Shown in pieces: positions 3,521 to 59,441 of a stretch of DNA of 64,000 bases. Origin of the DNA: Methanomicrobiales archaeon (GTDB taxonomy: Archaea; Halobacteriota; Methanomicrobia; Methanomicrobiales; Methanospirillaceae); assembly GCA_037137755.1 (NCBI GenBank), contig JBAXJR010000003.1, positions 32,001 to 96,000 on the forward strand, read 5' to 3'. Below the pieces are notes generated by a model. It was given only the letters and a program-made list of their open reading frames with translations. It did not search any database and was not told the origin of the DNA. The position numbers and the translations under genes were made by a program. The first letter of the stretch is position 1, and every line of letters begins with the position of its first letter.

Positions 3521-3689
3521 TTCCCCTCATTTCATGATCGTGTTAGATTTCAGCGTAATTGATTATGGCTTGAAATAATCGTCACTGTTGTAACCCTTTA
3601 TGAGTAAAAGATAAAAAGCTATTTTTGGTGATGAATGTTCGTAATCTTATTTTTGATTGATTACAGCTTTTCCTTTTCAAAAAATACCA

Positions 3690-4118
3690 TTACACAAAAT
3701 TCGTCTTGGCCAGTAGAATTTTATTGGAAGGTCCATTATAGTATAATTCGACAACTTTAAGTGAAGGCTGATAATAAATAACAATGGTAGGGTTTTCGAA
3801 AGACCAATCTTCTTTTGTTTCTATTAATAATCCTCCCGCAGAATTATGATAGTATAAGGGAGGTACTGGATTTCCGTCAATTATTACTTGAAATTCCCCC
3901 CATTTTAGTGTATCTCCCCCCATATGAGTTATCGTAACATTATTCGATGCATTGGAAATAGATACACTTAATTCCGGTATTTTTTCTGGGCGAGGCTGGG
4001 AAATTATAACAGTGGTTACAACCATCATAAGCATTACAACAAGTGATACGAGAAGAATTGCGCCTATTAGTTCCGATACACCAGATTCTAATTCAATTTC
4101 ATCTTTTTTGATTTTCAT
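3690..4118 (-). CDS. Small archaeal type IV pilin (Pilin_N/DUF1628 type)
   Basis: LESG/VSELIGAILLVSLVV signal, ITHMGGDTL pilin motif, 142 aa. Confidence 0.85.
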   Translation of the reverse strand: MKIKKDEIELESGVSELIGAILLVSLVVMLMMVVTTVIISQPRPEKIPELSVSISNASNNVTITHMGGDTLKWGEFQVIIDGNPVPPLYYHNSAGGLLIETKEDWSFENPTIVIYYQPSLKVVELYYNGPSNKILLAKTNFV

Positions 4119-4167
4119 TATTTATTCCAGTCGTCTATTTCATCAATTTTGTAAATTCATTGTAATA

Positions 4168-5499
4168 TTAATTAAACTGGTAAGATGTTGGAGAGAGTGA
4201 TACAGTCGCGACACTACTTTGGACGTCTAATATTATATCATACCCAGAATTATCATTTATGTTCATTGTCACTATATTTCCATTCCGTGGTAGAACAGTA
4301 ATTCTATCCTTAGCATCACTATCTTGTCTTATCTTCAAAAATGTATTAAACCACATCTTTGCTACCGCATCATCATTCGAGCGGTCATCTGTCGTAATAA
4401 TAATTGTGACCGATTTCGCGTTAGGAGCTCCTGATGTTTGAGGATTGACGAGGTTATTCAAATTCACAGTTGGTTTTTGTAAATAGGTCAGCACCTCAAC
4501 CAGAGAAGAACCGCCAATAATAGAAGGTGCTGTTTTACTGATTGTGATGTTATTAATAGTTACTCGCGTTAAACTTTGGTTTGTTAGATCTTTCTTAATT
4601 GTAATAGAAGGAACTAATTTTACAACTGCCCCTGTATCCTGTTGTAAGAATACACCCCCATACTGGTAAATATAATTTTGAGTGATCCAGTAATTATTGT
4701 TAGAGTGATACTCAAGGGATCCCATTTTCGATGTCGGTACAATCACCCCTGTTTTTTGGAGATATCCTGTGGGCATATTTGTTACGGTATTATCATTGGG
4801 TTGGAAAGATAAGCTAAAAGGGTAGACAAATGACTCCTTTATGCCATAAGCACTGTTTGTCAGATCTACTTGGTAATATTGATTAGGAGCAATAGAATAT
4901 TGAATAGTCAGATTGTTTACAGTTATAATATTATTTTTCAATATTGTTATTGTTAGTGCGGTTGATGGTCCTGGTATGGTTTTTAATTGAGCTTTCCAAA
5001 TGCCATTTGTCGGTGTGATATTTACAGAAACCGGATTAGAAATATTATTACTCGTCAGAAAATTTACGAAAAGATGGTTTGGTTCAATTTGCACTAATGG
5101 TGATGGAGTGTAACTTGGTGATCCAGTTTCATCATATAGTGCATCAGCAGTCACATTTATTGAATCCCTGTCCGTAACAACCATCGTGCCCCCTGACGTT
5201 ACAGGCTGGAAGAGTGGCATATTTACAAACGAGCCCTGTGAAGAGCCGGGATTTGTCCCGAGCGTAAACGGGGAACTGACCTGGGTATTGTATTGGCCAT
5301 TAATCCAGAGCGAGTCTACCGTGGATTTATAGTCGAGGAACTGGTTCTGGACGACGTCCATGTGCGCAATTTCAAGGTCCCTTCCCGTTGCAGGTACCAC
5401 GTAGGTGAGGTACAACGATGCTATTATCGCTATCAATGCAATAATCAGCACAAAGCCGATTACTTCCGAAATCGCGTCATCTCGCCGGGAATCCACCAT
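4168..5499 (-). CDS. Type IV pilin-like protein, 443 aa (minor pilin)
   Basis: DDA/ISEVIGFVLIIALIA class III signal, E..H...V...F helix, G.L.Y.SNNNYW..Q.Y.YQ.GGVFL.Q block typical of methanogen minor pilins. Confidence 0.8.
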   Translation of the reverse strand: MVDSRRDDAISEVIGFVLIIALIAIIASLYLTYVVPATGRDLEIAHMDVVQNQFLDYKSTVDSLWINGQYNTQVSSPFTLGTNPGSSQGSFVNMPLFQPVTSGGTMVVTDRDSINVTADALYDETGSPSYTPSPLVQIEPNHLFVNFLTSNNISNPVSVNITPTNGIWKAQLKTIPGPSTALTITILKNNIITVNNLTIQYSIAPNQYYQVDLTNSAYGIKESFVYPFSLSFQPNDNTVTNMPTGYLQKTGVIVPTSKMGSLEYHSNNNYWITQNYIYQYGGVFLQQDTGAVVKLVPSITIKKDLTNQSLTRVTINNITISKTAPSIIGGSSLVEVLTYLQKPTVNLNNLVNPQTSGAPNAKSVTIIITTDDRSNDDAVAKMWFNTFLKIRQDSDAKDRITVLPRNGNIVTMNINDNSGYDIILDVQSSVATVSLSPTSYQFN

Positions 5500-5784
5500 G
5501 ATCTATTTTAACATTCTGATTTATTCTTAATAAAAGATTCCTATCGTCCCATTTAGCAGGGAAATCAATTCCTCCCAAACAGCATTATCCGATTACCGGC
5601 ATGGTTCTCTTGTGGAGAAATTGGATTTTTTAATTCCACAAATCGTCCAGAAAAATCGGAAGTATGATTTCCTGCTATCCTGGAGGAAAACCGGGTCATT
5701 ATGGTATCTGTAACGAGCCGAATGCTTAATGGTAAGGTATCCACTATAGTGCAACGTCGTATTCATTTTAAGCGGGGTTTCTTC

Positions 5785-6258
5785 ATGAAAATAACCGTAA
5801 AGGGGTTAATATTAGTTTTAATCCTTCTATCTGGTAATCTTATTTTCGGCTGTATGGGTTTAAGTACAGATGATCAATTCAAACATGAGTGGCAAAACTC
5901 TGAATCCAGTATCAGTAAAGAACTCGATCAGGTTCAGATGGCTATTGCTCACGGCGATAAAGCAATTGATTACAATGCGTTATCGTACCATAGCGGGGAA
6001 ATTGTAAAAATTACTGATAAAGAATCAGCGATAATTTCTGATATCCCTGTGAGTGATAAGTATTCTGAAGCAAAAAGGGAGTATCTCTCCGCATTAACTG
6101 ATTTACGATCCGGGTATGTTCAAATCTTCATCATATCCGACAGCGAGGATAAAGAAATGTTAGTGGATTTGATCTCATCAGGTCCTTACCTGAAGAATTA
6201 TATCGAAAAGCGGGACAGGGTCAAGACAATTATTGAACTGGCCGAAAAGAATCAATGA
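5785..6258 (+). CDS. Hypothetical secreted or lipoprotein, mainly helical
   Basis: Preferred ATG at 5785 gives MKITVKGLILVLILLSGNLIFGC, a signal peptide with a lipobox-like Cys. Confidence 0.6.
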   Translation: MKITVKGLILVLILLSGNLIFGCMGLSTDDQFKHEWQNSESSISKELDQVQMAIAHGDKAIDYNALSYHSGEIVKITDKESAIISDIPVSDKYSEAKREYLSALTDLRSGYVQIFIISDSEDKEMLVDLISSGPYLKNYIEKRDRVKTIIELAEKNQ

Positions 6259-6614
6259 AAAAGATCTGGTGTGGTGTATCCTGGTCCCGGTAACCGGTAC
6301 TTCTGATGATCATATTGTTTTGTCACATAAGCAGCGGCACCGAGGTTTGGCTCTGGATGATCCATCTGGAAAAGAATGGCAGACTACGGAAACAAGCTGA
6401 AGGAAATGGAAAGTTTCCCGCGTGGATCAAATTCCATGGGGGAGCCCCTGATTCAGAAATTACTGGTACTAATACACTTAATTGTACTGATGATAGTCTA
6501 TACTACGGAAAATTAGATCTCACGTACAATTTCAAATGCATGAGTGACACAGGCCCGGCCACTCACTGTGAAGTTCCAGAATTCCGTACGAAAAATCCGG
6601 AAGTCTTAAAATAG
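6255..6614 (+). pseudogene. Possible degraded paralog of the 5785..6258 gene
   Basis: ATG overlaps the upstream stop; a shifted frame reads GLALDDPSGKEWQTTETS versus GLSTDDQFKHEWQNSESS upstream; several frame breaks. Confidence 0.35.
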
Positions 6615-6850
6615 TCCCTGATTAGTCAATGCAGGTATGGAACCCCTTGAATATCCTTATGGAACTTTCCGTACGATGTACGGGAACTAGGTGGTTTTTA
6701 GCTGGGGGTGACACGTTCCAGGGAATTTAGTATATCCTATTCTTTCGCACAGGTCTTGATCGGAGCAGGAATGAAAAAGGATTTCGATACCAGTTCTACC
6801 TGGGACATGCTGTTCATCTCAACGATAAGCAGTTTTTGAAAAAAAGAAAA

Positions 6851-8437
6851 TCATTTAAATTCTACATTAAATGTACGATCGGTAACGACATTAATGACTG
6901 TGGCGTTAACAATAACGCCATCCCCTGCTGCTGGATATACCTTTGCGTCGGTGTCAATTTGGTACCAATAAACTTGTTTGTTCGAGTTCGGTTTCAAGTA
7001 GAATGTCTGGCTGTTGCCATAAATGACGTTGACCGCCCATGAATTGCCCAGAGGTGAAGCCATAAGGCTGTCTGCATAAACATCACCTAATCCTTGACCC
7101 CCACTTTTGCTTCCACTAATAGTAAGTGGTGAGACATAGGTGTATGTCGTGGATGCAGTACCGCCGAGTGTAGTAACAACAACGTTTACCATCCCAATTG
7201 CATGGGCGGGCGTTATCGCAGTTATCGTAGTATCGCTAACGACAGAGAAACTGATTGCATTTGTGCCGCCAAAGGTTAATGCAGTAGTGCCGGTAAAGCC
7301 AGTCCCACTGATCGTTACAGCTTGGCCGCCCGCTGTCGGGCCCGAATTTGGTGAGATGCTTGTTAACGTAGGGGTTGTTGTAAAGGTATATATGTCAGCA
7401 GACGAAGTGGCGGATGTGCCGCTGGGTGTAGTGACTGTGATATCAATGGTTCCGGCAACATGGGCCGGGGCGGTCGCAGTGATCTGTGTGGCGCTATTAA
7501 CCGTGAACGAGGTTGCGGCTGTGCCACCAAAGGATACTGCAGTTGCACCGGTAAAGCCAGTCCCTGTGATAATTACCGGTGTGCCGCCTGTTATTGATCC
7601 GGAAGTAGGAGAGACGCTGGTTACCACCGGTGCTGCAATGTAGGTAAATACACCTGTCCCGGTTGCAGTACCATTAAGCGTAGTGATGACAACGTTAACG
7701 GTTCCGAGTGCATGGGGAGGTGTTGTCGCAGTGATCGAAGTACCACTGACAACCGTGACACTGGTAGCAGATGTGCCACCAAAGGTTACTGAAGTCGCTC
7801 CGAAAAGATTCGTCCCGGTTATGGTTACAGGTGTTCCGCCCGATATCGGTCCTGAAGCAGGGGTGATGCCTGTGAATGTCGGAGCAGGAGATATTGTTGT
7901 TGTAGGTGTCGGTTCGGCCACACCTACGCCGGTATTCTTCGTATAAATGAGCACATCGTCAGTCTTGTCAACCACATCGAACCTCCATACCCCGACAGGT
8001 AGTCCCGTGCCTTTCCGGGCGGTTGTTTCATTTTTTGTGACCCCTAGGAGACCTGATTTATTGTACACAAACAGGGTATCCCCCGGTTTCCAGGTCTCCG
8101 GGCCATCGGCCGGGTCCGGGAAGGGAATAACAGTGGCGCCTGAAGGGGTCGTGAACTGGAAATCCACCGGCATCCCGTTATTGGTAGCTAAGGTGTGGTT
8201 CAGGTAGGCCGCATCACCGTTCATGTGGGACACTGAAAGGTACCAGTTGTCAGGCGAGACATTTTTTGCCTCGGTCTGGACAGCGATATAAGCAGATTTT
8301 GGATAAAAGATTGCAAGGCCGAACACGATACTGGCGACAATGGCGGAAACGGCGATTACCAGGATCACCATCAGGATAACGCTGACCGTTTCATCAAGTC
8401 CTCGATCATTCAAACAGCGGAATGCAGGGCGCTTCAT
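6851..8437 (-). CDS. Type IV pilin-like adhesin: pilin domain, 3 IPT/TIG repeats and a divergent InlB B-repeat-like C-terminus
   Basis: DRG/LDETVSVILMVILV signal; three P....P.SG...GG..V.I.GT.F.G.T.V.FGG repeats; V.YG.SQTF...PN tail. Confidence 0.85.
   Translation of the reverse strand: MKRPAFRCLNDRGLDETVSVILMVILVIAVSAIVASIVFGLAIFYPKSAYIAVQTEAKNVSPDNWYLSVSHMNGDAAYLNHTLATNNGMPVDFQFTTPSGATVIPFPDPADGPETWKPGDTLFVYNKSGLLGVTKNETTARKGTGLPVGVWRFDVVDKTDDVLIYTKNTGVGVAEPTPTTTISPAPTFTGITPASGPISGGTPVTITGTNLFGATSVTFGGTSATSVTVVSGTSITATTPPHALGTVNVVITTLNGTATGTGVFTYIAAPVVTSVSPTSGSITGGTPVIITGTGFTGATAVSFGGTAATSFTVNSATQITATAPAHVAGTIDITVTTPSGTSATSSADIYTFTTTPTLTSISPNSGPTAGGQAVTISGTGFTGTTALTFGGTNAISFSVVSDTTITAITPAHAIGMVNVVVTTLGGTASTTYTYVSPLTISGSKSGGQGLGDVYADSLMASPLGNSWAVNVIYGNSQTFYLKPNSNKQVYWYQIDTDAKVYPAAGDGVIVNATVINVVTDRTFNVEFK
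7130..7890 (-). repeat. Three tandem coding repeats of about 250 bp (IPT/TIG units)
   Basis: Protein-level repeats; the DNA block ccggtaaagccagtccc recurs near 7290 and 7548. Confidence 0.8.
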
Positions 8438-8780
8438 ATCTCAAGACAGTAGTAGCACTTGCAGCGTATATAAACCAGATCTTTAAAAAAGTTGTATGGT
8501 GCTACCGGGTGGCATCAGGGGGATGCTACAAATAGTCGTGCGGAAGTCTTTCCTTCATTCCCAACCCAACAATGTCTATTTACCTGGGATTTCCCGAAAA
8601 TTATTCGATTCCATGTAACCAAAATAATTACCAACAATAATTATTTACCATTTTAATCGTATTACCTAATACTTTATTATCCATTATCCTATACTATCTC
8701 ATACGCAGGATCGGAGGAATGAAAATACGTTCGGTATTTTCATAGTTGATGGCCGAAAACCGGTAGCAACGGGTGAAGAT

Positions 8781-9086
8781 ATGAAACAGAAAAGATTACG
8801 ATCGGGAAAGACCGGGAATTACACCAGCGTGCATGAACCGGGTACAGAATACCTGCCCCGGTCCGGCCCGGTTATCGTTGTGGATGCAACAGGCCGGATG
8901 GTGCTTCCCAAAAAAATACGGGACCGTTTTAACGCGAAACGATTTGAGGTACTGGAAAAGGAGGGGCATATCGAGTTGATCCCTATCAAACCGCTGGACA
9001 CACTATTTGGGATATTACCTGGAATCGATATAGAAAAATTGTACCTGGAACACGATCGGGAATGTGAAGAGGAGGACAAAGGGTGA
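8781..9086 (+). CDS. AbrB/MazE/SpoVT-family antitoxin (VapB-like)
   Basis: VDATGRMVLPKKIRDRF...IELIPI AbrB motif; GTGA overlap with the downstream PIN gene. Confidence 0.85.
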   Translation: MKQKRLRSGKTGNYTSVHEPGTEYLPRSGPVIVVDATGRMVLPKKIRDRFNAKRFEVLEKEGHIELIPIKPLDTLFGILPGIDIEKLYLEHDRECEEEDKG

Positions 9087-9478
9087 CCAACTCCGGAATC
9101 CTTGTTGATACCTGGGCCTGGCTTGAGATGATGGGTGGGTCCCCAAGGGGAGACCGTGCACGTGACATCATTCTCAACAGTTCACCTGTCTCTCTATCTG
9201 TCCTGACGCTCTATGAACTCCGGTACCGCCTGGAACAGATTAAAAACCGTGAGTTTGCAATAATGGTTATTAAACAGATAACCGATCAGGCAGAAGTTAT
9301 ACCCATAGATGATCAGATTGGACTCCTTGGCGGTACCATAAAGATTCAACAAATCTCAGAGAAAAAAACAATGGGCGCAGTTGATTGCCTGATCCTTGCA
9401 ACAGCCCGTGTCCATAACCAGCAAATCCTTACTGGTGATAAACATTTTGCGGGTATTCCGGAGGCTATTTGTTTATGA
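9083..9478 (+). CDS. vapC: PIN-domain ribonuclease toxin
   Basis: LVDTWAW, TLYEL, GAVDCLILATA, ILTGDKHF acidic tetrad motifs. Confidence 0.9.
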   Translation: MTNSGILVDTWAWLEMMGGSPRGDRARDIILNSSPVSLSVLTLYELRYRLEQIKNREFAIMVIKQITDQAEVIPIDDQIGLLGGTIKIQQISEKKTMGAVDCLILATARVHNQQILTGDKHFAGIPEAICL

Positions 9479-9555
9479 ACGTTAAATCCTGAAAATATAG
9501 CCCAGGTTACTATCTCTCCCTGGAGGTAGCCGATAACAATAATTCAGGGGATATT

Positions 9556-9909
9556 TTATTGAAAACTGTCCGGTTTCATCGTATCAAGGAGGGCACGGAT
9601 CTGCGGTTCGAGTTCTGGTAATTTGTGTTGTATAACATCCCAGACAATATCATAATTGATGGAAAAGTATCCATGAATGATTTTATCGCGAAGCCCGGCC
9701 ATGAATTTCCAGGGGATATGGGGTGACTCACCTTTAACTATATCCGGAACATTTTTTGAAGCTTCGCCAATAATCTCCAATGAACGGGTTATCGCATGCT
9801 CCATCGTTCTGTCTGTAGTGAGTTCTTCAAACGTAATGGTATCACGAATGGACCGGAGATATTCGATCTCGTCAAGGATGTGTTGGATATACACCCATTC
9901 ATCCTTCAA
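9556..9909 (-). CDS. HEPN (DUF86/HepT-like) ribonuclease toxin
   Basis: RSLEIIGEASKNVP...IPWK.MAGLRDKIIHGY with the RX4HXY motif. Confidence 0.92.
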   Translation of the reverse strand: MKDEWVYIQHILDEIEYLRSIRDTITFEELTTDRTMEHAITRSLEIIGEASKNVPDIVKGESPHIPWKFMAGLRDKIIHGYFSINYDIVWDVIQHKLPELEPQIRALLDTMKPDSFQ

Positions 9910-10222
9910 TCCAGATCACCTCACTCTCCACACGGGATCGGATATAATGGTCTATTCCTTTGACAGTCAGCAGATCGACTTTTCGTGAAAACAGGTCTTC
10001 GAGGTAAAACGCGAGCTTCATGAAATTATCAAAGGTTGCCTGCCCGTGTGCGAATTCGACGAGAACGTCAACATCACTTGTTCGTTTCTGCTCGCCGCGG
10101 GCAAACGAACCGAAGATGCCGATCCGTTTCACACCAAAGTCTGCACGCAAACCTGGCAGGGCCTGTTTAAGTCGGGAAAAGATCGGGCTTCTTCTCCTTT
10201 GAATTGTGAGCGGTGATTGCAA
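9899..10222 (-). CDS. Minimal nucleotidyltransferase antitoxin (MntA-like)
   Basis: GIFGSFARGEQKRTSDVDVLVEF (GSX10DXD); overlaps the HEPN gene. Confidence 0.92.
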   Translation of the reverse strand: MQSPLTIQRRRSPIFSRLKQALPGLRADFGVKRIGIFGSFARGEQKRTSDVDVLVEFAHGQATFDNFMKLAFYLEDLFSRKVDLLTVKGIDHYIRSRVESEVIWIEG

Positions 10223-10785
10223 AGATATTCTCTCTTATTAATGTGTGAGGTACTGGCACACAAAAGGCTTGTGGCGGGTGTAGGTGAGGTTCGTTTTGAG
10301 CGTTTCGATAGTTCTTCCATGTGATGGATTGACTCTCACGTAAATCGGGTGGTAAACTACAGATTTTGACTTCAACCGGATCGGAAGATGAAACCTGTTA
10401 AACAACATCCTGATAATGTCAGCACATACATTTTTTCACACAGGATATATGGGAAAAAAGTGAGTTCTGATGAAAATAAGGATAATTCGGCCTCTTTTAC
10501 TGCTAATAGGGTGGTTTTAAAAAATAATTCGTATCAAAAGCTGATGCGGTATTTCTTCAGGGCTGGTATTCCCGATAAATCGGTCGAAATTAACCCCGAT
10601 CTGCCTAATCTCTCCAGGTTATCCCGGTCTTAAAAAATCGATAAATATTGGTTTATTCAGGAGAAATAGGCGTTAAAATGGCGTTATTTACACTTATGTC
10701 AGGATAACCTGTTCTTATGGAGAGACATCAGGTATGAATCCTCTTTAACAATAAAAACGAAAAAATATAATTATTTCCTGTAATT

Positions 10786-11094
10786 TCACTTTCTCTCATC
10801 CGGTGCAACATATTTCGGGTGGAAATAGCGCCAGAGCAGGCCTGACAGGGCAATGACAATCAGGATGATACCTAAAGCCAGCCATATGGGCACGAATCCG
10901 ACATTCTGCGGAATAGCAACAGAAGGCAAAGCAAATGGAGGTGATGTCGTGGGTACAAAGGTTGTTACTGAAGTCTGCACAGTCCCAGAAGGGTAAACAC
11001 CGGTCGAATTACCTGGAACCAGAGCTGATACCGGCATGAAAAGAAGTGAAATCGCACTCAGGAAGATTAGAATATGATATACTTGGATCTTCAT
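10786..11094 (-). CDS. Small secreted, C-terminally membrane-anchored S/T/P-rich protein
   Basis: Signal peptide ending PVSA, T/P-rich linker with an NST sequon, C-terminal TM helix followed by WRYFHPK. Confidence 0.65.
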   Translation of the reverse strand: MKIQVYHILIFLSAISLLFMPVSALVPGNSTGVYPSGTVQTSVTTFVPTTSPPFALPSVAIPQNVGFVPIWLALGIILIVIALSGLLWRYFHPKYVAPDERK

Positions 11095-11227
11095 TACCTT
11101 TCATTTGGAAGGTCATTCGTATATTTCTATCTCTTCAATACGATTTGAAAAAAAGATCCTTGGATTTGTGATACAACAGTAATAATTATACGTTTCGTGA
11201 CTCTCATTTCATATACGGAATTTTCAT

Positions 11228-12472
11228 ATGACAAAAAAAAAGGGTAATACAGAGACGGGAGTTTCCGATCTGATAGGTACCATTCTTATCGTCATCCTCG
11301 TTATCGGCCTGGCCGCTGTTATTGCGGCATTTCTCATGCCGAATTTGCTGCACAAATCTGCCTATATCGCGAGCGAAGTGACTGCCTCACCGATCACCCA
11401 GCCAAGCGGACAGCAGGTGGAAGTCATCCGGCTCCTCCCGAAAAATGGAGATCCCTTTTACATTATCGGGCAGAAAAAATCCCCAGGAGGCTACCCGATT
11501 TCGGTGAGGGCCATATCTCCGGATGGACGAAATATCGGTGTGAACTGCACTGACCTGACCGGGAACCTTTACGGAAAAGAACTGTACGTGTACCCGGCAA
11601 ACCGGCCGGGTTCGGGACCTTGTGATATGTGTATTAATGACACACGGCCCACAGGTTCAATGAGGCCTATGGTAAATGGTGTCTGGACAATTCAACTTGT
11701 CGACGAGGAGTCGCATATTCTCGTGATGTCAAATGCTGATGGCAAAATTACGAAAGGTACAACCTCCCTGCCGAAGGTGGGAGGCATGCTTGGAAGTAAT
11801 GTGTATTATTCCAATTGCAGTACCCTTACACCTACCCCTGACTCAAATGCACCGACCAGTACCACGTTAGGTCCGGGCAATATGTCGTACCGGACATTTG
11901 ATGGTAGTACCCAGTATATGAAGTACCTGGATAACCCCGCCCTTGATTTTAACGGGGATATGGCAATTTCCCTCTGGTTCAATCCCAGCGATAATTCATC
12001 TACGCGACAGATCATTGGGAAAGGGCAGGCACCGAGTTATGGAAACCCTGCCACTGCAGTAAATGAGGACGACAATTACCAGGTTTTCCAGATTGGAAAC
12101 CAGCTATTGTTTGAATGGAATAATAAAGCATCACCCTACCTGCACTACCAGGCCATGACACCCCCGACCGTCCTGGCAAACCAGTGGAATTATCTGACTG
12201 TGAATGTGGAGGGCGGGAAGCTGAAAATTTATAATAATGGAGGTGCTCCCTTGGATCTTGTCTACTATAACAATAATAACCACGTTTCTCCCCCAATGTT
12301 GTCCCCCCCAACCGTGGACTTAAAGACCAACGATTATAATATGTATATCGGAAATCAATACCAAAGTGGATCGCCATATTCTTATGTTGGAGACATTGGT
12401 AGTATGGCACTTTATGACCATGCACTCAACGCCTATGAAATACAGCAGAACCTTTTGACCTATTCTGCATAA
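11228..12472 (+). CDS. Type IV pilin-like adhesin with C-terminal LamG-like domain
   Basis: TETG/VSDLIGTILIV signal; FDGS.QY...ISLWFNP...QWNYL...LKIYNNG...GDIGSMALYDHAL. Confidence 0.85.
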   Translation: MTKKKGNTETGVSDLIGTILIVILVIGLAAVIAAFLMPNLLHKSAYIASEVTASPITQPSGQQVEVIRLLPKNGDPFYIIGQKKSPGGYPISVRAISPDGRNIGVNCTDLTGNLYGKELYVYPANRPGSGPCDMCINDTRPTGSMRPMVNGVWTIQLVDEESHILVMSNADGKITKGTTSLPKVGGMLGSNVYYSNCSTLTPTPDSNAPTSTTLGPGNMSYRTFDGSTQYMKYLDNPALDFNGDMAISLWFNPSDNSSTRQIIGKGQAPSYGNPATAVNEDDNYQVFQIGNQLLFEWNNKASPYLHYQAMTPPTVLANQWNYLTVNVEGGKLKIYNNGGAPLDLVYYNNNNHVSPPMLSPPTVDLKTNDYNMYIGNQYQSGSPYSYVGDIGSMALYDHALNAYEIQQNLLTYSA

Positions 12473-51133: not shown

Positions 51134-51623
51134 CAGTACTACAGTCTCCTGGTTCTGGTTAATGGTAACCCCTCGTTGAAAAATACTTTGTCGTTGTACC
51201 CGGGAATGAAATATCCAGTGTATTTTTGTCATGAAAAAACAGTATGGAGATGGTGAAGGCAGTCCTGACCAGCTTTCAATAATCCCTTCCCTTATGAAAT
51301 GAAATAATATAATACTAATTCCTGGCCCTTTCTTTCGAAACTAAGTGAAATGGCACGCATCTAGAAATCATGTTATCCTAATCGTGATGAATGGTTGGAT
51401 AATCATTCGATGATGCAGTTGAACTCTTGGTGAGGTTTTACACGTATGACGGGAACGTATGTTTGTCAGGTATGCGGGCAGATTTATGGTCCCGCAGAGG
51501 GAGTTTTGGATGCAGTAATCTGTCCAGGCACAGCATTTGATTCACATCCCGGGACCTCTGGCATTTCCCAGCCTTTCGATCACCAAAAGAAAAGTTTACC
51601 ATGATGTAACGGGAAGTGCAATA

Positions 51624-52814
51624 ATGGTTATCAGAACTGTAACTCCGGACTGCTACTCGATCGCCGCGCTCGATTTTGACAGGCGGCTTTTTGATGCACT
51701 TGTCCCATTACCTGATGGAACAAGTTATAATGCCTATATAGTTAAAGGAAGCCAGAAGACTGCACTTATCGATACGGTTGACCCTTTAAAAGAGCTGGAA
51801 CTGGTTTCTGATCTAATCCGCCTTGGTGTTGATTCGATAGACTATGTAATTGTAAATCACGCTGAACAGGACCATGCGGGGTCCCTTCCTATGATCCTCG
51901 AGTTGTTTCCATCATCAAAGGTTGTGACAAACGAGAAATGCAGGGATCTCCTTATCAGTCACCTCGATCTGGAAGAAGAGCGGTTTATTACAATAAAAGA
52001 CCGCGAAACACTCTCCCTTGGAAATAAGACCCTTGAATTTATCATTACGCCATGGGTCCACTGGCCTGAAACGATGCTCACCTATCTCAGGGAGGACCGG
52101 GTACTTTTTTCATGCGACCTTTTCGGAACGCACTACGCAACTACTGACCTGTTCATGAAAGATGAAAAAATCATCTATATCGCCGCAAAACGATATTATG
52201 CGGAGATTATGATGCCCTTCCGGGCTAGCATCAAGGGGCATATGGAAAAAATCGGAGCAGTTGCTATTGATATTATCGCACCGAGTCATGGCCCGGTTTA
52301 CAATAACCCAGGTTTCATCATCAATGCGTATAATGAGTGGATATCAGATTCGGTGAAAAATGAAGTGGTAATCCCCTATGTATCGATGCATGGCAGTACA
52401 CGGAAGATGGTGGACTACCTGACAGGTGCATTAATTGAACGTGGCATTGCGGTGAAACCCTTTGATATGACAGTTACTGATACCGGGAACCTTGCCATGT
52501 CACTGGTTGATGCTGCGACGGTGGTAATCGCCACCCCTACTGTCCTGTTTGGTCCGCATCCGCAGATTGTCTATGCAACGTACCTTGCGAACATGCTCCA
52601 TCCCAAAGTGAAATTTGCATCTGTGATCGGTTCGTATGGCTGGGGGGGAAAGACGGTCGATGTGCTTAAATCCATGATGACTCACATCAAGCCTGAACTG
52701 CTCGAACCGGTGCTTGTCCAGGGATTACCAGGAGAAGCATGTATCAGGGATCTCGACCGTCTCGCAGACGATATTGCCCGGAAACACAAAGAAATAGGTA
52801 TGTTACCTCAATGA
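51624..52814 (+). CDS. fprA: Flavodiiron protein (A-type flavoprotein)
   Basis: GTSYNAY, NHAEQDH, HWPET, SCD.FG.H, PSHG, flavodoxin SMHGST and GSYGWGG. Confidence 0.93.
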   Translation: MVIRTVTPDCYSIAALDFDRRLFDALVPLPDGTSYNAYIVKGSQKTALIDTVDPLKELELVSDLIRLGVDSIDYVIVNHAEQDHAGSLPMILELFPSSKVVTNEKCRDLLISHLDLEEERFITIKDRETLSLGNKTLEFIITPWVHWPETMLTYLREDRVLFSCDLFGTHYATTDLFMKDEKIIYIAAKRYYAEIMMPFRASIKGHMEKIGAVAIDIIAPSHGPVYNNPGFIINAYNEWISDSVKNEVVIPYVSMHGSTRKMVDYLTGALIERGIAVKPFDMTVTDTGNLAMSLVDAATVVIATPTVLFGPHPQIVYATYLANMLHPKVKFASVIGSYGWGGKTVDVLKSMMTHIKPELLEPVLVQGLPGEACIRDLDRLADDIARKHKEIGMLPQ

Positions 52815-53038
52815 TTGCGTGAGAAAACAGTTGCCAGTACCCCTGGTTTATTTATTTTATTATGTTTCCATTCCTATTTGGTGCCCGTTTTAATAAGATA
52901 CCGTTTTAGCTGCTCCCAGGACTTTTTAATTATCGAACTATTAACCGACATTATTCCATGGCGGGCTCATAGAAAATCAATTATTTTTACTTTAACATCA
53001 GAAAATTGAATAACCTCACCGTCCAACCTGTTATCCCA

Positions 53039-53851
53039 ATGAAGCAGATCGCCCTGTACGGGAAGGGTGGGATCGGCAAGTCCACCACATCGGCCAACCT
53101 GTCAGCAGCGCTGGCAGAGAAGGGCCTCGATATACTCCAGATTGGGTGTGATCCCAAGCGTGACAGCACGAGAATGCTGATGCAGGGCAGGTTCATCCCT
53201 ACGGTAATGGACCATGTCAGGACAGAAGGTGATGCCGATGTCAGGCTGGAAGATATCATGTTTACCGGGTACCGCGGGGTCCGGTGCGTCGAAGCAGGAG
53301 GGCCTGAACCCGGTGTCGGGTGTGCCGGGCGGGGGATTATTGCCACCTTCCAGATCCTTGAACGCCTGGGTGCGTTGAAAGGCGATATCATTGTCTATGA
53401 TGTCCTCGGAGACGTTGTATGCGGGGGGTTTGCCATGCCGATGCGTGAAGGGTATGCGCAGGAGGTCTACCTTGTTACCTCCGGGGAACTCATGTCATTA
53501 TATGCGGCTAATAATATCTGCAAGGCGATTCAACGCCTCTCCCTGAGGGCGAAGAACCGGTGCCGCCTTGCGGGTGTGATCTGCAATTCAAAAAATATGG
53601 AAAATGAAGAGCAGCTCGTCGTCGAATTTTCGAGGCAAATCAACAGCCGGCTTATCCAGTTTATCCCCCGTGACAGGACTGTCCAGCTGGCCGAGGTTCA
53701 TAAAAAAACTGTGATTGAATATGCCCCTGAATCCACGCAGGCAGGGATTTACCGGTCTCTTGCAGGGATTGTTGCGACGAATGAACAGTTTACAATTCCC
53801 ACACCAATGAGTACCGATGACCTTGAATCCCTTGCCTTTGAGTACCTCTAG
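53039..53851 (+). CDS. NifH-like Fe protein (group IV nitrogenase-like reductase component)
   Basis: [44 protein letters not shown]. Confidence 0.93.
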
Positions 53852-54884
53852 GACCGGTGGCTGCACCCTTACCGGGGCGCTTTCGGTCACGACCGGGATT
53901 AAGGACTCGGTGACGATAATTCATGGCCCTCCTGGTTGTGCGCATCATAACTTTTCGCTCCTCCATGCGACAATCCTTGATAACGACTGCATGGTAATCC
54001 CGAAAGTCATGTCTTCAGGGCTTTCCGAACATGATGTGATATTCGGAGGTGAGGAAGCGCTTATGAAGGTGATCCAGCAGGTCGCATCCGGGGATCCAGG
54101 AATAATATTCGTTCTTTCGACCTGTATCACCGATACGATTGGCGATGATGTCCTGGCCGTTACGGAGAATGCGGGAGTTCCGGTCTGCATGGTACCTACC
54201 GGGGGATTTTTGGGAGGCGATTTCGAAAAAGGTTTTTCACGGGCGCTGATTGCAGTTTCAAACCTTGCACTTCCCATGATTATTCCTCCTGAACGGGACC
54301 TGGAAATTTCCGGCTCCGTTAATCTGATAGGAGAAAAAAACCTTGAGTATGAGGTGAAACAAAACTTCCTGGAAGTCAAGCGCCTGGTTTCCCTGCTTAA
54401 TCTTAGCATCAATCTTCGTTTTGCCCATGATATTACACGCTCCGATATTGACCGTCTCCCCCTTGCATCGGTGAATATTTTAAGAGAACCCGCACTATCA
54501 GGAGTCGGTGATCACCTGCTGTCCACATTCGGTACTCCGTACCTCAACTCATTTCCGCTCGGTATCCGCGGGACCCTGTCCTTTATCAGGAATATAGCTG
54601 CCCGGTCTGGATCTTCGCCGGATGAAGCGATCGATAGTGAAAAAGAACACCAGATGGAGATACTTAATGGATTTTCAGACCTCCGTGGTGCCCGTGTAAG
54701 ATTTACCATTCCGGCAGGGCACCCGGAATATCCCCTGGTTAAGGAGATCTCCATGGCTATCGGGTTTGAGGAATCCCCTGATGGCACCTTATTGCCGGTG
54801 CCTTATCCATTCCCGGTGGGGACAAGTGGAATGAAAAGGATGCTTCACCTCTGGAGGAGGACACTACCTTGCCTGGTTGCTTAA
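53817..54884 (+). CDS. Nitrogenase component 1-like subunit A, function unknown
   Basis: GC16TLTGA, HGPPGC41, DVIFGG, STC103[14 protein letters not shown]. Confidence 0.88.
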
Positions 54885-56005
54885 ACCCTGTATGGCCATG
54901 TGCGCTGACCGGGGCAGTTGCGGCTCTTTCCGGGTTTTCTGGCATCGCGGTAGTAATTCACGGCTCAAGTGGTTGTTATTTTTACCCTGCCACCTTATTG
55001 CACCATGATCTCCACAGCACCTTCCTTGTTGAACAGGAAGTGATTTTCGGTACGAGTGAACGGCTTGTTGAAGTTGTGAAGGACCTTTCCCTGACTTACA
55101 AAAAAGTGGCGGTGGTCAACTCGTGTGTCCCATCTGTTCTTGGTGAAGATGTCCGGGATATTCTTTTAGAATATGACATAATCTTCGTTGACAGCCCCGG
55201 ATTTACTGGTGACTTTGAGTCCGGTTATCTTCATGCAGTAAAAGACCTGCCTGTCTGTATGCAACAGGGTACAGAACAGGTGAATGTTGAAGGGGTAAAT
55301 CTTATCGACCCGTTTGCCCGCGGTAACCAGCGCGAAGCAGAACGGCTTCTTCAAATGGTGGGAGTTTCTGTAGGCACAGTCTTCTGCCATGATTCATACG
55401 AGTCGCTTAACAATGCAGCCGGCTATTCAGTTACGGTAAATCCGGACCTCCCTGCAGGTTATGGGTGTCAACTTGGCTCTCTCCTCGGCCTTCCTTCACT
55501 ACGAAAAACGGTAAATAACCTGGCAGACAGGTTTTGTAATGCAGATATCGTGGGAATTGAATCCGAGATACTCATGGTCGAAGAACGGATTACAAAAGCA
55601 GCTGACAAGTACCTGAAACGGTTTGATCCTCCATCAGTAGCCATTTTCTCCACCTGTTCATACTCAGGATTTGCCGCTGCCACGTTACACCAGTACCTTG
55701 ATGCGGATATTGTGTTTTGCGGGTCACGAAATGAACCGCAGCCTGCCTGTACAAACGCCATCAGGGTAACTTCTCTGGAAATAATTGAGGAAACAATTCA
55801 TGAGCATGCTCCCGATCTGGTCCTCGGGTCGACCTTTGAACGTTCTGTTGCAGGAAATGCCGCATTTTTCGGGCTCACCCCTCCAATCCGTGGGGAGTTC
55901 CGGCTTTCATCAAAACCACTCGCCGGTACGGAAGGTGAACTGGTGTTCATGGAAGACATTCTGAATGCCTGTATGGACCGCCAGCAACGGAACCCAGTGA
56001 AATAG
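54869..56005 (+). CDS. Nitrogenase component 1-like subunit B, function unknown
   Basis: PC11ALTGA, HGSSGC36, EVIFG, NSC86VPSVLGED, DSPGF.G, PDLVLGSTFER. Confidence 0.88.
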   Translation: MPGCLNPVWPCALTGAVAALSGFSGIAVVIHGSSGCYFYPATLLHHDLHSTFLVEQEVIFGTSERLVEVVKDLSLTYKKVAVVNSCVPSVLGEDVRDILLEYDIIFVDSPGFTGDFESGYLHAVKDLPVCMQQGTEQVNVEGVNLIDPFARGNQREAERLLQMVGVSVGTVFCHDSYESLNNAAGYSVTVNPDLPAGYGCQLGSLLGLPSLRKTVNNLADRFCNADIVGIESEILMVEERITKAADKYLKRFDPPSVAIFSTCSYSGFAAATLHQYLDADIVFCGSRNEPQPACTNAIRVTSLEIIEETIHEHAPDLVLGSTFERSVAGNAAFFGLTPPIRGEFRLSSKPLAGTEGELVFMEDILNACMDRQQRNPVK

Positions 56006-56122
56006 CCATCGATAACGATTTATTTACCTCTTCTGCTTCATGTGTATTTTCCATCACTTTCACCCTGCGCATATCGAGAATTTATATATCGCGATAATAA
56101 GAGTGGATCTTTGGCAGATGAA

Positions 56123-56551
56123 ATGACCATGATTTCAAAAGCAGGATACTTTCAGCAGAACGGGTATGCAGCACTTGATGACGAAGGAACGCCAAAACAG
56201 ATCGCTGAGCTCAATATCCGCGGAACAAAATACGGGATCCGGCTCGATGAATTGAAGGAGGCCCTGTATGGTCACCACCCGGCACGGGTTGAGCGGGTAT
56301 TTCAGAACTGGCAACAGTACCTGGGTGGCATTGCAGGACTTGCCCACATATCCCGCTCGGGAAAGGCATTGAATATTGAACTTGTTGAAGGGGGAAGATA
56401 TACCGTTGCCCTTGACTCTCTGGTTTCAGCACTTTCCCGGCGAGGTGTATATGCATCGGTTGGAGAGATTCCGGAACCCGTCTCATCATGGGATATCAGG
56501 GGAAGAAAAATCGCACACGGTCAGCAGACAATCCCGGTGCATGTGACATAA
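56123..56551 (+). CDS. Hypothetical protein with an internal two-fold repeat
   Basis: LNIRGTKYGIRLDELKEAL versus LNIELVEGGRYTVALDSLVSAL. Confidence 0.6.
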   Translation: MTMISKAGYFQQNGYAALDDEGTPKQIAELNIRGTKYGIRLDELKEALYGHHPARVERVFQNWQQYLGGIAGLAHISRSGKALNIELVEGGRYTVALDSLVSALSRRGVYASVGEIPEPVSSWDIRGRKIAHGQQTIPVHVT

Positions 56552-56596: not shown

Positions 56597-57712
56597 TCAG
56601 GTCTTTACAATAATCTCTGCAATTGCATCCCCGACCCCGGTGGTCCCTGACTGGCCCCCCATATCTTTTGTTACATTTCCAGCCAGGATGCATTTCTCGA
56701 TTGCGTTGACAATTGCACCGGCAGCTTGATGCTCACCGATATGGTCAAGGAGCATGGAACCCGCCCAGATGGTGGCCATCGGGTTCGCTACCCCTAAACC
56801 CTTGTACTTTGGAGCAGATCCATGGATGGGTTCAAACATCGAGGTCCCTTCCGGATTGATGTTCCCGCCCGGGGCAAGGCCAAGCCCTCCCTGTATCATT
56901 GCACCGAGATCGGTGATAATATCGCCAAACATGTTCGGGGTGACCACGACATCGAACCACTCCGGGTTCTTTACGAACCACATCGTGATGGCATCGACAA
57001 AATTAAACTCAGTCGTTATTCCGGGGTGCCTGGCTGATCTTTCGAGGAAGACGTCCCGCCATAGGCCATACATATCAGAAAGCACGTTTGCCTTGTCTAC
57101 GGATGTTAATTTCTTCTTTCGTTTCTCTGCAAGGTTAAATGAATAATCTATGACACGACGTGCTCCTTCCCTGGTAATAACCCCGATCTGGTAGGCGATC
57201 TCTTCCGCATCGCTCTCCACATCGAGATCAAATTTTACGTTATAGAGCTCGCGGTTGATTAATAGTTCAATTTTCTGTTGTTGTTTGAACCGGGAACCAA
57301 TGCCAACGTAGAAATCCTCGGTGTTTTCTCTCACCACGATAAAATCAATATCTTCAGGACGCTTCCCTGCAAGTGGTGTAGCCACACCTTCAAGCAGGCG
57401 GATTGGTCTCAGATTAATATATTGATCAAAGTAAAAGCGCAAGGATAAAAGGATTCCCTTCTCCAGGATACCCGGTTTTACCCGTTCATCTCCTATTGCC
57501 CCGAAATAAATTGCCGGAAACGCTGATAATTCTTTTAAGTCTTTCTCGGTCAGGAGAGTACCGGTTTTGAGGTATCGTTCTGCACCGATATCAAAGTCAG
57601 TCCACTGGATATCAAAGTTAAACCGCTCACCGGCGGCATCCAGGACTTTTTTTCCTTCAAGAATGATTTCCGGGCCGATACCATCCCCGCCTATTGATGC
57701 GATGCGATACAA
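56597..57712 (-). CDS. leuB: 3-isopropylmalate dehydrogenase (beta-decarboxylating dehydrogenase family)
   Basis: [39 protein letters not shown]; follows leuCD. Confidence 0.78.
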
Positions 57713-58188
57713 ACCGGCACCTCCTGGAATTCCCGGGCATATTCTACGAGGCCCCCGGATGTTACTATTTTCATCAGGAACTCCGGAATTGGCTCTATAG
57801 GGAATTTCTGTCCTTCAACGATAAGATAACCCCCGGTTAAATCAACCATTACACTATTCCCTTCGATAATGGAATCGGCCTTATCGCAGACTACGGGAAG
57901 CAGGCCCACATTTATCGCATTGCGGTAAAAAATCCGAGCAAATGATTCGGCAATCACCATGGTGATTCCGGCACCTTTCAATGCAATCGGTGCATGCTCA
58001 CGGGATGAGCCGCATCCAAAATTCTTGCCTGCAACAATAATGTCTCCGGGTTTCACTTCACTGGTAAATTCATCCCGTATGCCTTCAAATGCATGTTTTG
58101 CAAGCTCATGGGGGTCGTAAATGGTAAGGAACCTTCCTGGTATTATTGCATCTGTGTCGATATTATCTCCAAACTTCCATACTCTCAT
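57691..58188 (-). CDS. leuD: Isopropylmalate isomerase small subunit (LeuD/AksE family)
   Basis: [26 protein letters not shown]; the loop reads FLTI rather than the homoaconitase-type YLRT. Confidence 0.75.
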
Positions 58189-59441
58189 TATTCCACCTCC
58201 CTTGGATCGGTTATTTCACCATAGATACCACTCGCTGCTGCCGTGGCAGGTGAACAAAGGTAGACCGATGCACCGGTACTACCCTGCCTGCCCTTAAAAT
58301 TGCGGTTGGACGTGGAGAGAGAGACCTCTCCGGGGGCCAGGAGCCCGAATGCGCCTCCCATACATGGTCCGCAACAGGGTGCTTCAACAAGAGCCCCGGC
58401 GGTAACAAAGCGTTCTACCAGTCCTGCACGCAGCGTCTTTAAATATTCCTGCCGTGATGCAGGTATAATGATGACCCTGACATTATCTGAGAATTTCCTG
58501 TTCCCAAGTACTTCTGCAACCTCAACAAAGTCTTCAAACCGCCCGTTCGTACATGAACCGATAAATACCTGGTCCACTTTCGTCCCGGCAACGTTGGTCA
58601 CATCGACTCCGAGGTCGACATTATGTGGTTCTGCGACCTGTGGTGCGAGATTTTTCACATCATAGGTGCGGTCCTCAGTAAAGGACGCGTTATTGTCGCT
58701 CTCCAGTGAAAAAGGGACAATTTTCCGTACCCTGCTAATATAGTCCCAGGTAATAGCATCCGGAGGTACTATCCCCGCCTTTGCTCCCATCTCGATTGCC
58801 ATGTTGCAGCAGGTCATACGCCCTGACATGTCCATGGCCTTCATGGTAGTTCCGATAAATTCAATCGCCTTGTACGTCGCACCGTCTGCCCCTATATCTG
58901 CAGCTATTGAGAGGATCAGGTCTTTAGGCCCCACTCTTTTCTGGAACGCTCCATTTGCAGTTACCCTGATAGTTTCCGGTATGCGGAAATATAATGCCCC
59001 GAATTTCAGGGCAAATCCCATGTCCGTGGAGCCGATACCTGTAGCAAATGCTCCTGCGGCGCCATACATGCAGGTGTGGGAATCAGCACCCACGACGATT
59101 TCACCCGGAGCTGCTTTACCCATCTCCATGGTCACCTGGTGGCAGACACCCTCCCGGAGGTCATAATTGAAAATTCCCTGCTCTTTAGCAAAATTTCTCA
59201 TATATACATGATTTTCGGCAGCCTCTATCGAGTCAGCAGGGATCTGGTGGTCAAAGAGCATGGTGATCCGTTCGGGGTCATGGACATGTTTCCCCCCCAT
59301 TTCGTAAAATTTTCGGATTGCAAGTGGTCCGGTGATATCGTGGATCATGGCGTTATCAACAGGCGCCATCACTACCTCACCTGCACAGACATCCTTTTTG
59401 CATTTCATCGAAAATATCTTTTCAACTATCGTTGCACCCAT
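58188..59441 (-). CDS. leuC: Isopropylmalate isomerase large subunit (LeuC/AksD family)
   Basis: DSHTC, IGSCTNGR, CGPCMG, SNRNF.GR. Confidence 0.78.
   Translation of the reverse strand: MGATIVEKIFSMKCKKDVCAGEVVMAPVDNAMIHDITGPLAIRKFYEMGGKHVHDPERITMLFDHQIPADSIEAAENHVYMRNFAKEQGIFNYDLREGVCHQVTMEMGKAAPGEIVVGADSHTCMYGAAGAFATGIGSTDMGFALKFGALYFRIPETIRVTANGAFQKRVGPKDLILSIAADIGADGATYKAIEFIGTTMKAMDMSGRMTCCNMAIEMGAKAGIVPPDAITWDYISRVRKIVPFSLESDNNASFTEDRTYDVKNLAPQVAEPHNVDLGVDVTNVAGTKVDQVFIGSCTNGRFEDFVEVAEVLGNRKFSDNVRVIIIPASRQEYLKTLRAGLVERFVTAGALVEAPCCGPCMGGAFGLLAPGEVSLSTSNRNFKGRQGSTGASVYLCSPATAAASGIYGEITDPREVE

Follow-up and report, generated by a model that had tools for sequence, protein, structure and literature searches.

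What does a nitrogenase-like gene set do in an archaeon for which a PF00148 profile search of the genome assembly finds no nifDK? This question is raised by three consecutive genes, herein designated H, A, and B, on a 64,000-nucleotide stretch of DNA (the window) from a Methanomicrobiales archaeon (GenBank assembly GCA_037137755.1, contig JBAXJR010000003.1; C3:32001-96000 in the contig numbering used below). The source assembly comprises 2.64 Mb in 106 contigs and is 90.6% complete. Gene H encodes a NifH-type iron (Fe) protein, while A and B encode two different subunits related to component 1 of nitrogenase (coordinates in Table 1). Nitrogenase-like enzymes perform some of the hardest reductions in biology. 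Several of their clades are still without a known function, according to a 2026 review (PMC13474568).

The explanation proposed herein, to which as a whole we give a probability of about one in two, is that H-A-B forms an operon encoding an ATP-dependent, nitrogenase-like reductase of two components, in which H is the Fe protein CfbC and drives an A/B component with a P-cluster-like center that reduces an organic substrate directly. Its function would be confined to Methanomicrobiales and of use to the cell, but not strictly essential.

A and B as subunits of a distinct component 1

A preliminary description of the locus had listed three overlapping genes for an intact Fe protein and two distinct, short component-1 subunits of 355 and 378 residues. 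The open reading frames (ORFs) and the Pfam search agree with this description: in the ORF list H and A overlap by 35 nt and A and B by 16 nt, and the scores of A and B on PF00148, 175.5 and 123.4 bits, are far above the Pfam gathering score of 28.6 bits. Since the Foldseek matches are also all component-1 proteins, both subunits belong to the nitrogenase component-1 superfamily. The overlaps, as read from the sequence, are compatible with translational coupling of H, A, and B. A TTG at 53006, upstream of the ATG at 53039, is an alternative start of H, but is less likely because the ATG yields a canonical N-terminus.

On the curated models of characterized members, A scored 108.7 bits for nifE (cut-off 505.1), 71.6 for nifD (653.55), 74.6 for BchB (490.35), and 50.7 for CfbD (268.4), and B scored 52.0 bits for nifK (427.3), 20.2 for nifN (326.8), and 49.7 for CfbD (268.4). 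Neither protein is thus a CfbD (TIGR03282), and the two are distinct subunits with three and four invariant Cys residues, respectively. The score of A on BchB is the best on any Bch model, placing both proteins outside BchN/B and BchY/Z. NifD/NifK, together with their Vnf and Anf counterparts, are set apart by the low scores, an Arg for a ligand Cys, and the missing domain III, even though the six P-cluster Cys are present, and NifE/NifN by the low scores, the lack of Cys at the NifE position, and a genome without nifDK. Likewise, A and B are not MarDK: the scores to two chains of the structure 9d9u were 62.1 and 30.0 bits, the ligand Cys is absent, and no radical-SAM gene lies in the cluster. 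When A, B, and ten other nitrogenase-like proteins were run against NCBIfam, only Nif, Vnf, Anf, Bch, and Cfb models were matched.

Among solved structures, the closest relatives of A were NifEN and NifE (E-values 4.4e-26 and 1.8e-19), followed by chain 9d9u_C of the R. rubrum methylthio-alkane reductase (MAR) (4.7e-16) and NifD (5.8e-16); that of B was NifK (10zk_B, 1.3e-13). By Foldseek, the model of A matched NifEN 9i0f_A best (E-value 3.7e-18, TMq 0.65), with BchB 3aek_B at TMq 0.69, and the NifEN, BchB, NifD, and MAR chains gave similar TM-scores of 0.63-0.70. In a scan of 1.84 billion representatives, the full-length members and strongest fragments of the A family scored 224-428 bits, and the best match outside this family was P0261, a protein of 372 aa from Bacillota/Limnochordia metagenome genomes, at 164.5 bits.

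Trees were constructed with FastTree on 110 rows and with IQ-TREE (quick, LG+C20) on 65 of those rows, among which was no named NfaD, MarD, or IsrD sequence. A formed a clade of its own with a support of 97 in FastTree and 100 in IQ-TREE, inside a clade shared with NifH-NifD-like fusion proteins of about 730 aa and bacterial homologs (97 in FastTree; 99 for 24 rows in IQ-TREE by the Shimodaira-Hasegawa-like approximate likelihood ratio test, SH-aLRT). B also formed its own clade (support 100), which was joined in FastTree by the K-like partners of the fusions with a support of 98. CfbD, NifD/E, and NifK/N were separate clades, each with a support of 100. The sequence comparisons altogether support the view that A/B is a heteromeric nitrogenase-like component 1 distinct from CfbD, NifDK, NifEN, and BchNB/YZ. 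The preliminary description, which had taken A/B for an uncharacterized reductase component, is upheld in this respect by both the curated scores and the trees, as A/B stands outside the CfbD clade and the locus is not the only CfbD-like one of the genome.

Conserved cysteines, truncation, and predicted pairing

Cys residues of A are located at positions 16, 41, 58, 103, 124, and 352, and those of B include positions 4, 11, 36, and 86. C16/C41/C103 of A and C11/C36/C86 of B had been described as spaced like the P-cluster ligands of NifD and NifK. These positions are exact, and in HMMER alignments to solved structures the triad of A falls on three Cys of NifE and NifD and the triad of B on three Cys of NifK. 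The Cys motifs are GC..GA, HGP..C, and (S/T)TC..GDD in A, and C..GA, HGS.GC, and (S/T)(S/T)C in B. Conservation was read over 21 orthologs from six families, in which a total of 43 positions in A and 29 in B are invariant, including in 21/21 orthologs seven Cys residues, i.e., the two triads and C4 of B, a fourth invariant Cys beyond the P-cluster-type triad. Besides these seven, no Cys is conserved across the 21 orthologs except at position 116 of A (54162-54164), where the window has Thr and 20/20 other aligned orthologs have Cys in a motif (A/S/I)(V/I)C. This position is no known cluster ligand.

The cofactor ligands are different. At the site at which NifE and NifD carry the Cys that binds the cofactor (NifE Cys250-type), A has R223, which is invariant in the same orthologs, and A reads REPAL where NifE has the motif vCSKAM. 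No further invariant Cys or His was found in A over this set besides the His36 of HGP. In addition, the Pfam match of A spans profile positions 1-275 of 399, compared with 1-398 of 399 for B, and the AlphaFold2 model of A (mean pLDDT 87.8, pTM 0.86) has only a strand-helix-strand-helix remnant past residue 293. A therefore keeps domains I and II with a remnant of domain III, as was expected from its apparent truncation in the last domain. The absence of FeMo-co (iron-molybdenum cofactor), which had also been proposed, agrees with the missing ligand positions; lack of NifB is no argument for it, as nifB is present in the genome.

The complex predictor gave A and B a score of 0.75, as against 0.00 for the best of three controls. 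This mark is reached by 58/80 solved complexes and 2/110 mismatched pairs, counts that apply only roughly here since custom alignments were used. Between runs at least 89% of the contacts agreed, and the pLDDT of the partner was at least 89. The predicted interface (A 11-16, 37-44, and 102-104; B 2-11, 33-35, and 86-87) covers the regions of all seven Cys. Binding of A and B to each other is a prediction by model only, which may reflect their likeness to the solved NifDK and NifEN.

H as the CfbC of the genome

H carries the P-loop GKGGIGKS and the cluster ligands Cys95 and Cys128, which correspond to Cys96 and Cys132 of CfbC, the bridging [4Fe-4S] ligands (PMC13474568). On the NCBIfam model NF033200 (F430_CfbC) H exceeded the cut-off of 402 with 415.7 bits, and on the nifH equivalog it stayed under the cut-off of 394.35 with 382.8 bits. 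It is the sole strong PF00142 match in the assembly, the next two being at 39.9 and 32.8 bits. PF00148 has three matches in the assembly: A, B, and one gene on contig C51, which at 495.5 bits (cut-off 268.4) is the true cfbD, so that a separate cfbD was indeed found elsewhere in the genome. It is flanked by a CbiX-type cfbA (C51:10064-10402), a Mur-ligase-like cfbE, and a cobyrinate-diamide-synthase-like cfbB; no cfbC was found in this cfbA-cfbE-cfbD-cfbB cluster. Methanogens need CfbC. With H as the sole NifH homologue of the assembly, a score over the CfbC cut-off, and no cfbC in the cluster on C51, H is identified as CfbC. On the same grounds H must also serve CfbD, and from the gene counts we infer that CfbD and A/B use one CfbC (H). 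For these reasons, the preliminary description is not sustained where it takes the system to be minimal and self-contained, with an Fe protein of its own.

The numbers of Fe protein genes were also taken from 151 Methanomicrobiales genomes of six families (the order sample). At E<=1e-50, exactly one NifH homologue was found in 99 genomes, more in 50, and none in two. In four complete genomes with a single NifH homologue, cfbD is located 0.4-0.9 Mb from H-A. The possibility that H is a dedicated Fe protein and that cfbC was lost in assembly gaps was considered and rejected, because in relatives with complete, single-contig genomes, too, there is one NifH homologue, adjoining A. A copy may have been missed in the 90.6%-complete assembly, but not in those relatives.

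By position, the window is without nifB, nifEN, nifI, and cfbABE, as had been stated. Genome-wide, the only PF00148 genes are A, B, and the cfbD on C51, where cfbA, cfbB, and cfbE also reside, while P-II genes are on contig C20 and nifB is on C8. The latter, a stand-alone nifB homologue (G000:C8:25689-26504), scored 351.1 bits (cut-off 343.65), and no nifDK accompanies it in the genome. Of the 151 genomes of the order sample, 145 have a nifB homologue (E<=1e-40), 124 of these over the cut-off, in line with the reported universality of NifB among methanogens (Saini et al. 2023).

Distribution among Methanomicrobiales

A total of 885 database homologues were identified for A and 754 for B. Those with names belong to Methanoregula, Methanoculleus, Methanoregulaceae, or Methanomicrobiales and are labeled "nitrogenase component 1" or "oxidoreductase"; a search of the ESM Atlas gave only clusters of the A/B family itself, with the former label.

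A full-length ortholog of A (best E<=3e-61) was found in 148/151 genomes of the order sample, the exceptions being G053 (3.1e-10), G037 (1.1e-23), and G098 (no match; 62% complete). B orthologs (E<=1e-20) were likewise found in 148/151 genomes and missed in G053, G073 (71% complete), and G098. Outside the order, no ortholog of A was found in 173 genomes of the same phylum; the best match (1.5e-28, 33% identity over residues 15-267) is at the level of ordinary NifE/NifD similarity. H is located directly upstream of A in all 26 loci inspected. B follows A in 16 of the 26, and the 10 loci with non-adjacent A and B are all from genus g14 of family f5, in which, where both genes could be placed (e.g., G004 and G090), B is 2-4 kb from A on the opposite strand.

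In G053 (99% complete), H, cfbD (494.4 bits), and nifB (341 bits) are present, and A and B are both missing. The synteny FprA-Dfx-TrkH-H (Dfx, desulfoferrodoxin) is the same as in relatives, and the gene directly after H is the small ORF found downstream of B in the window. G053 is a clean natural deletion of A/B. Because it retains cfbC and cfbD, F430 synthesis does not need A/B. The A/B pair is a core feature of Methanomicrobiales, and is dispensable.

Comparison with known systems

The resemblance to CfbCD is in the Fe protein, as the one used by A/B passes the CfbC model, and in the short catalytic subunits (about 350-380 aa) without M- or L-cluster ligands in methanogens. CfbD is, however, a homodimer with two Cys per subunit (PMC13474568), whereas A/B is a heteromer with three and four invariant Cys. 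NifEN is the closest solved relative of A in both sequence and fold, and is likewise a heteromer of alpha and beta type whose NifH has a second partner, but has the L-cluster Cys and domain III, both missing from A, and A/B occurs in genomes without nitrogenase. NifN keeps only one beta-type Cys, whereas B has all three. With NifDK, VnfDK, and AnfDK, A/B shares the six Cys at P-cluster positions and the alpha/beta pairing, but the equivalents of Cys275 and His442 are missing and the subunits are 100-150 aa shorter.

DPOR (BchNB/ChlNB) and COR (BchYZ) may share the principle proposed here, i.e., an ATP-driven Fe protein, a heteromeric component 1 whose Fe-S cluster is at the interface only, and direct reduction of a tetrapyrrole. 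They differ in that DPOR has one [4Fe-4S] held by three Cys and one Asp (PMC13474568), that the scores of A and B on Bch models are well under the cut-offs, and that the source organism is no phototroph. MarHDK ("group IV-C") binds a P-cluster at the same six Cys positions, but depends on MarB and on an L-type cluster whose Cys and His ligands are absent from A (PMC13474568), and its subunits are longer. The nearest relatives of A in the trees, the NifH-NifD/E-like fusions with NifK/N-like partners, are likewise without an assigned function; such pairs were noted in Archaea, Firmicutes, and Deltaproteobacteria (Dos Santos et al. 2012, PMC3464626). In the A/B system, unlike these pairs, H is separate and doubles as CfbC, A has 355 aa versus about 440 aa for the D part of the fusions, and the BtuFCD/CbiZ/CbiK context is unseen in Methanomicrobiales.

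No published characterization of the A/B family was found in the literature searched, though supplementary clade lists may include it. Functions are assigned or proposed for groups IV-A (Nfa), IV-B (CfbCD), IV-C (MAR), and IV-F (isethionate reductase, ISR), and IV-D, IV-E, and group VI are unknown (PMC13474568); in this review, the names Methanomicrobiales, Methanoregula, and Methanoculleus do not occur. The test set of a 2026 mBio survey consists of bacterial genomes (PMC13753814). The H-A-B clade may already have been noticed in genome surveys, the single possible mention being that of Mlab_1040 and Mlab_1039, described with two and one conserved Cys, respectively, and no function (Dos Santos et al. 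2012, PMC3464626). They may be orthologs of A/B; against this 2 + 1 pattern, every A/B ortholog aligned, including those of two genomes of family f6, has 3 + 4 Cys.

Corrinoid genes around the sister clade

In two genomes of one Methanosarcina-like genus, genes for CbiZ, a BtuF-type binding protein, a FecCD permease, and an ABC ATPase are followed by the fusion and its K-like partner, and in one of the genomes examined (G318) only, CbiK was identified after this pair (Table 1). The fused H domain of the G318 protein scored 329.6 bits on the CfbC model. On a Bacillota/Limnochordia metagenome contig, a BtuF-type binding protein and a FecCD permease precede homologues of H, D, and K; a metagenome scan with the nearest bacterial relative yielded a single locus. 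These gene orders point to a corrinoid or metal-tetrapyrrole link for the fusion clade.

Proposed function and alternative explanations

In the proposed mechanism, H (CfbC), the single NifH-type Fe protein of the cell, would have two clients, CfbD for F430 and the A/B heteromer. A and B would pair like NifD/NifK or NifE/NifN, probably in the form of A2B2, and would hold at their interface an Fe-S center bound by the 3 + 3 Cys at P-cluster positions and the fourth invariant Cys of B. This center could be an [8Fe-7S] cluster resembling the P-cluster or two [4Fe-4S] cubanes. Because A/B is without a canonical M- or L-cluster pocket, a bound organic substrate would receive its electrons straight from the interface cluster, as in the case of DPOR, COR, and CfbCD. 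We infer the cluster type, the direct reduction, and the class of substrate alike. A substrate of tetrapyrrole or corrinoid type is a first guess, and a thin one that we expect to fail more often than to hold; it draws on the Fe protein used in common with CfbD, on DPOR, COR, and CfbCD as precedents, and on the genes around the sister clade. The characterized relatives without an M- or L-cluster site and with a known substrate, i.e., these three enzymes, all reduce tetrapyrroles (PMC13474568).

Several points weigh against this explanation. The assignment of one Fe protein to two partners is deduced by counting genes in an assembly that is 90.6% complete and in relatives with complete genomes. 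ISR, a predicted [4Fe-4S]-only relative, cleaves a sulfonate (PMC13474568), and hence lack of an M-cluster does not as a rule mean a tetrapyrrole substrate. The nifB in the genome may leave room for a complex cluster at a non-canonical site of A/B. The grouping of B with the K-like partners of the fusions had an SH-aLRT of only 85 in IQ-TREE. Corrinoid genes around the sister clade were seen in a single archaeal genus and on a single bacterial contig, and a third fusion locus (G322) is without them. In Methanomicrobiales itself, no neighbor gave a clue to the substrate in 21 loci (20 loci of 17 kb and the window, clustered, with the recurrent neighbors scanned). The mechanism and function of the whole A/B family are predictions from sequence and models.

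The orphan nifB leads to another explanation, in which A/B is a NifEN-like scaffold or enzyme that would receive [8Fe-9S-C] from NifB, with H acting as NifH does on NifEN. Such a non-nitrogenase client would account for a nifB over the cut-off in a nitrogenase-free genome and for nifB homologues in most of the order (145/151 genomes, 124 of them over the cut-off), and would fit the kinship of A with NifE and NifEN by sequence and fold. NifB is reported to be present in all methanogens and indispensable to M. acetivorans, and an unknown nitrogenase-like client has been proposed for it (Saini et al. 2023, bioRxiv 10.1101/2023.10.20.563283). A, however, offers little to hold such a cluster, as the NifE Cys250/NifD Cys275 position is an invariant Arg, most of domain III, home of the His ligand of NifD, is missing, and His36 of HGP is the only invariant Cys or His outside the triad. 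Moreover, G053 keeps nifB without A and B, and A was not found in the 173 genomes outside the order, although NifB is reported to be universal, so that A/B cannot be a general client of NifB. We consider a role as NifB client unlikely, and the particular form of it in which A/B would hold a carbide-containing L-type cluster from the orphan NifB at a non-canonical site, driven by CfbC, to be improbable. A C-S bond-cleaving enzyme for sulfur acquisition, like MarHDK or IsrHDK, is suggested by the co-location of most function-unknown group IV systems with sulfur-metabolism genes (PMC13753814), by the MAR P-cluster with the same six Cys (PMC13474568), and by the match of A to the MAR chain 9d9u_C at 4.7e-16. 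Yet A is no more similar to MAR than to NifD or NifE, the subunits in 9d9u are of 519 and 466 aa versus 355 and 378 aa, the Cys and His for the L-type cluster of MAR (PMC13474568) are missing from A, and no recurrent sulfur-metabolism gene lies beside H-A-B in the 21 loci, all of which make C-S cleavage unlikely.

The constant linkage of A to cfbC (26/26 loci, with predicted co-transcription), cfbD being distant, would be expected if A/B acted in the F430 pathway, either as an order-specific helper, as an alternative catalytic component, or as a repair or modifying reductase of an F430-type corphinoid using CfbC. The closure of the lactam ring is still open, with a cyclase possibly missing (PMC13474568), and the co-directional neighbors FprA and desulfoferrodoxin, being oxygen-stress genes, would suit the repair of an oxidized cofactor, if one is to speculate. 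Nevertheless, G053 has cfbC, cfbD (494 bits), and nifB without A/B, the CfbCD of Methanosarcina suffices in vitro (PMC13474568), and A was not found in methanogens outside the order (173 phylum genomes searched), leaving only a small chance for a role in the F430 pathway. As to mere decay, A and B could be non-catalytic paralogues kept by their linkage to cfbC, given that A has lost most of domain III, that one lineage has lost both genes, and that the window has Thr116 where 20 other orthologs have Cys. This is hardly credible in view of the intact full-length frames of each gene in 148/151 genomes of six families at 36-54% identity, the 43 + 29 invariant positions including all seven Cys, and the B of g14 in f5, which remains conserved at its new place 2-4 kb away.

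Neighboring genes and transcription

In the 21 loci, the recurrent co-directional neighbors upstream of H were genes for FprA (14/21), TrkH (12/21), a phosphoribulokinase-family (PRK-family) kinase (9/21), and desulfoferrodoxin (8/21), and isopropylmalate/homoaconitase-type genes were downstream in 9-10 of the loci. Nearby transporters vary by family (ECF-cobalt-type, Opp/Nik-type, OpuA-type, and ABC exporter). Many relatives have a co-directional row of FprA, desulfoferrodoxin or PRK-family kinase, and TrkH, followed by H-A-B; the window has the FprA-type gene upstream of H and is without TrkH and Dfx. Downstream of B, the window has a small ORF with a likely ATG near 56123 and with no match in Pfam or NCBIfam, which is conserved at this site in family f1 only, and which stands directly after H in G053. 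A box, TTTATATAT, about 40 nt upstream of this likely start suggests, as far as can be read from the DNA, a promoter of its own for the small ORF. The three genes that follow on the opposite strand could be leuBCD or the coenzyme B genes aksFED.

A contig of 228 nt from an RNA library of one freshwater metatranscriptome is identical to positions 54245-54472 within gene A. Of the sampled words of the locus, 5% were found in the RNA run, and this contig was its one match, with none over H or B; the uncovered parts carry no weight either way. In DNA runs from lake and freshwater metagenomes, 63-97% of the words were found. The contig is a weak hint of transcription of gene A, with DNA carry-over being possible.

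Table 1. Features of the H-A-B locus, its surroundings in the window, and the related fusion locus
Feature	Position	Strand	Basis
FprA-type flavodiiron gene upstream of H	51537-52814	+	
AT-rich intergenic region, likely H-A-B promoter region	52815..53038	+	suggested by several TATA-like runs in the sequence
H, NifH-type Fe protein, 270 aa, identified as CfbC	53039..53851	+	Pfam Fer4_NifH 365.5 bits; NCBIfam F430_CfbC 415.7
A, alpha-type (NifE/NifD-like) component-1 subunit, 355 aa	53817..54884	+	Pfam Oxidored_nitro (PF00148) 175.5 bits
B, beta-type (NifK/NifN-like) component-1 subunit, 378 aa, TTG start	54869..56005	+	PF00148 123.4 bits
Small ORF	56042-56551	+	
Three genes of isopropylmalate/homoisocitrate dehydrogenase and (homo)aconitase small/large subunit type	56597-59441	-	
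Gene row with NifH-NifD-like fusion (737 aa) and K-like partner (449 aa), G318:C1:1336000-1355000	locus positions 2870-11889		corrinoid-gene row CbiZ to CbiK

Other nitrogenase-like proteins

Short single-gene PF00148 proteins of about 390-410 aa, NifE/BchB-like, were also observed (G004:C1:938355-939083, G154:C1:706750-707865, and G201:C6:51100-52254). The protein of G004, a Methanoculleus-like genome, is encoded about 2.5 kb from cfbD (941515), and such proteins are present in other orders too. Those of G154 and G201 form one clade with P0293 in FastTree (support 98), apart from CfbD, NifDK/EN, and A/B; in IQ-TREE the placement of G201 is unresolved, and G004 is in neither tree. In addition, a complete Methanoregulaceae genome (G017:C1:2062830-2081341) carries three more nitrogenase-like D/K pairs and an extra NifH besides nifHDKEN, cfbD, and A/B. 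It has 13 PF00148 matches in all, and none of the extra nitrogenase-like proteins reaches a curated cut-off.

Significance

H-A-B is a real, conserved, and expressed-looking gene set, and A/B is a near-universal gene pair of one methanogen order, including, by database records, the cultured genera Methanoculleus and Methanoregula. The combination found in A/B is unusual: the P-cluster-type Cys set is complete and is joined by a seventh Cys, the alpha subunit is truncated, and ligands of a cofactor pocket are missing. The natural null lineage G053 and the cultured carriers make the pair approachable by experiment. A/B is also a concrete candidate for the question of a non-nitrogenase NifB client raised by Saini et al. 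(2023); if this were its role, it would represent a new class of complex-cluster reductase in Methanomicrobiales and provide a role for NifB in methanogens that do not fix nitrogen. If, instead, the explanation favored here is true, the sharing of CfbC between CfbD and A/B would be the second case of one Fe protein with two catalytic partners, after NifH with NifDK and NifEN.

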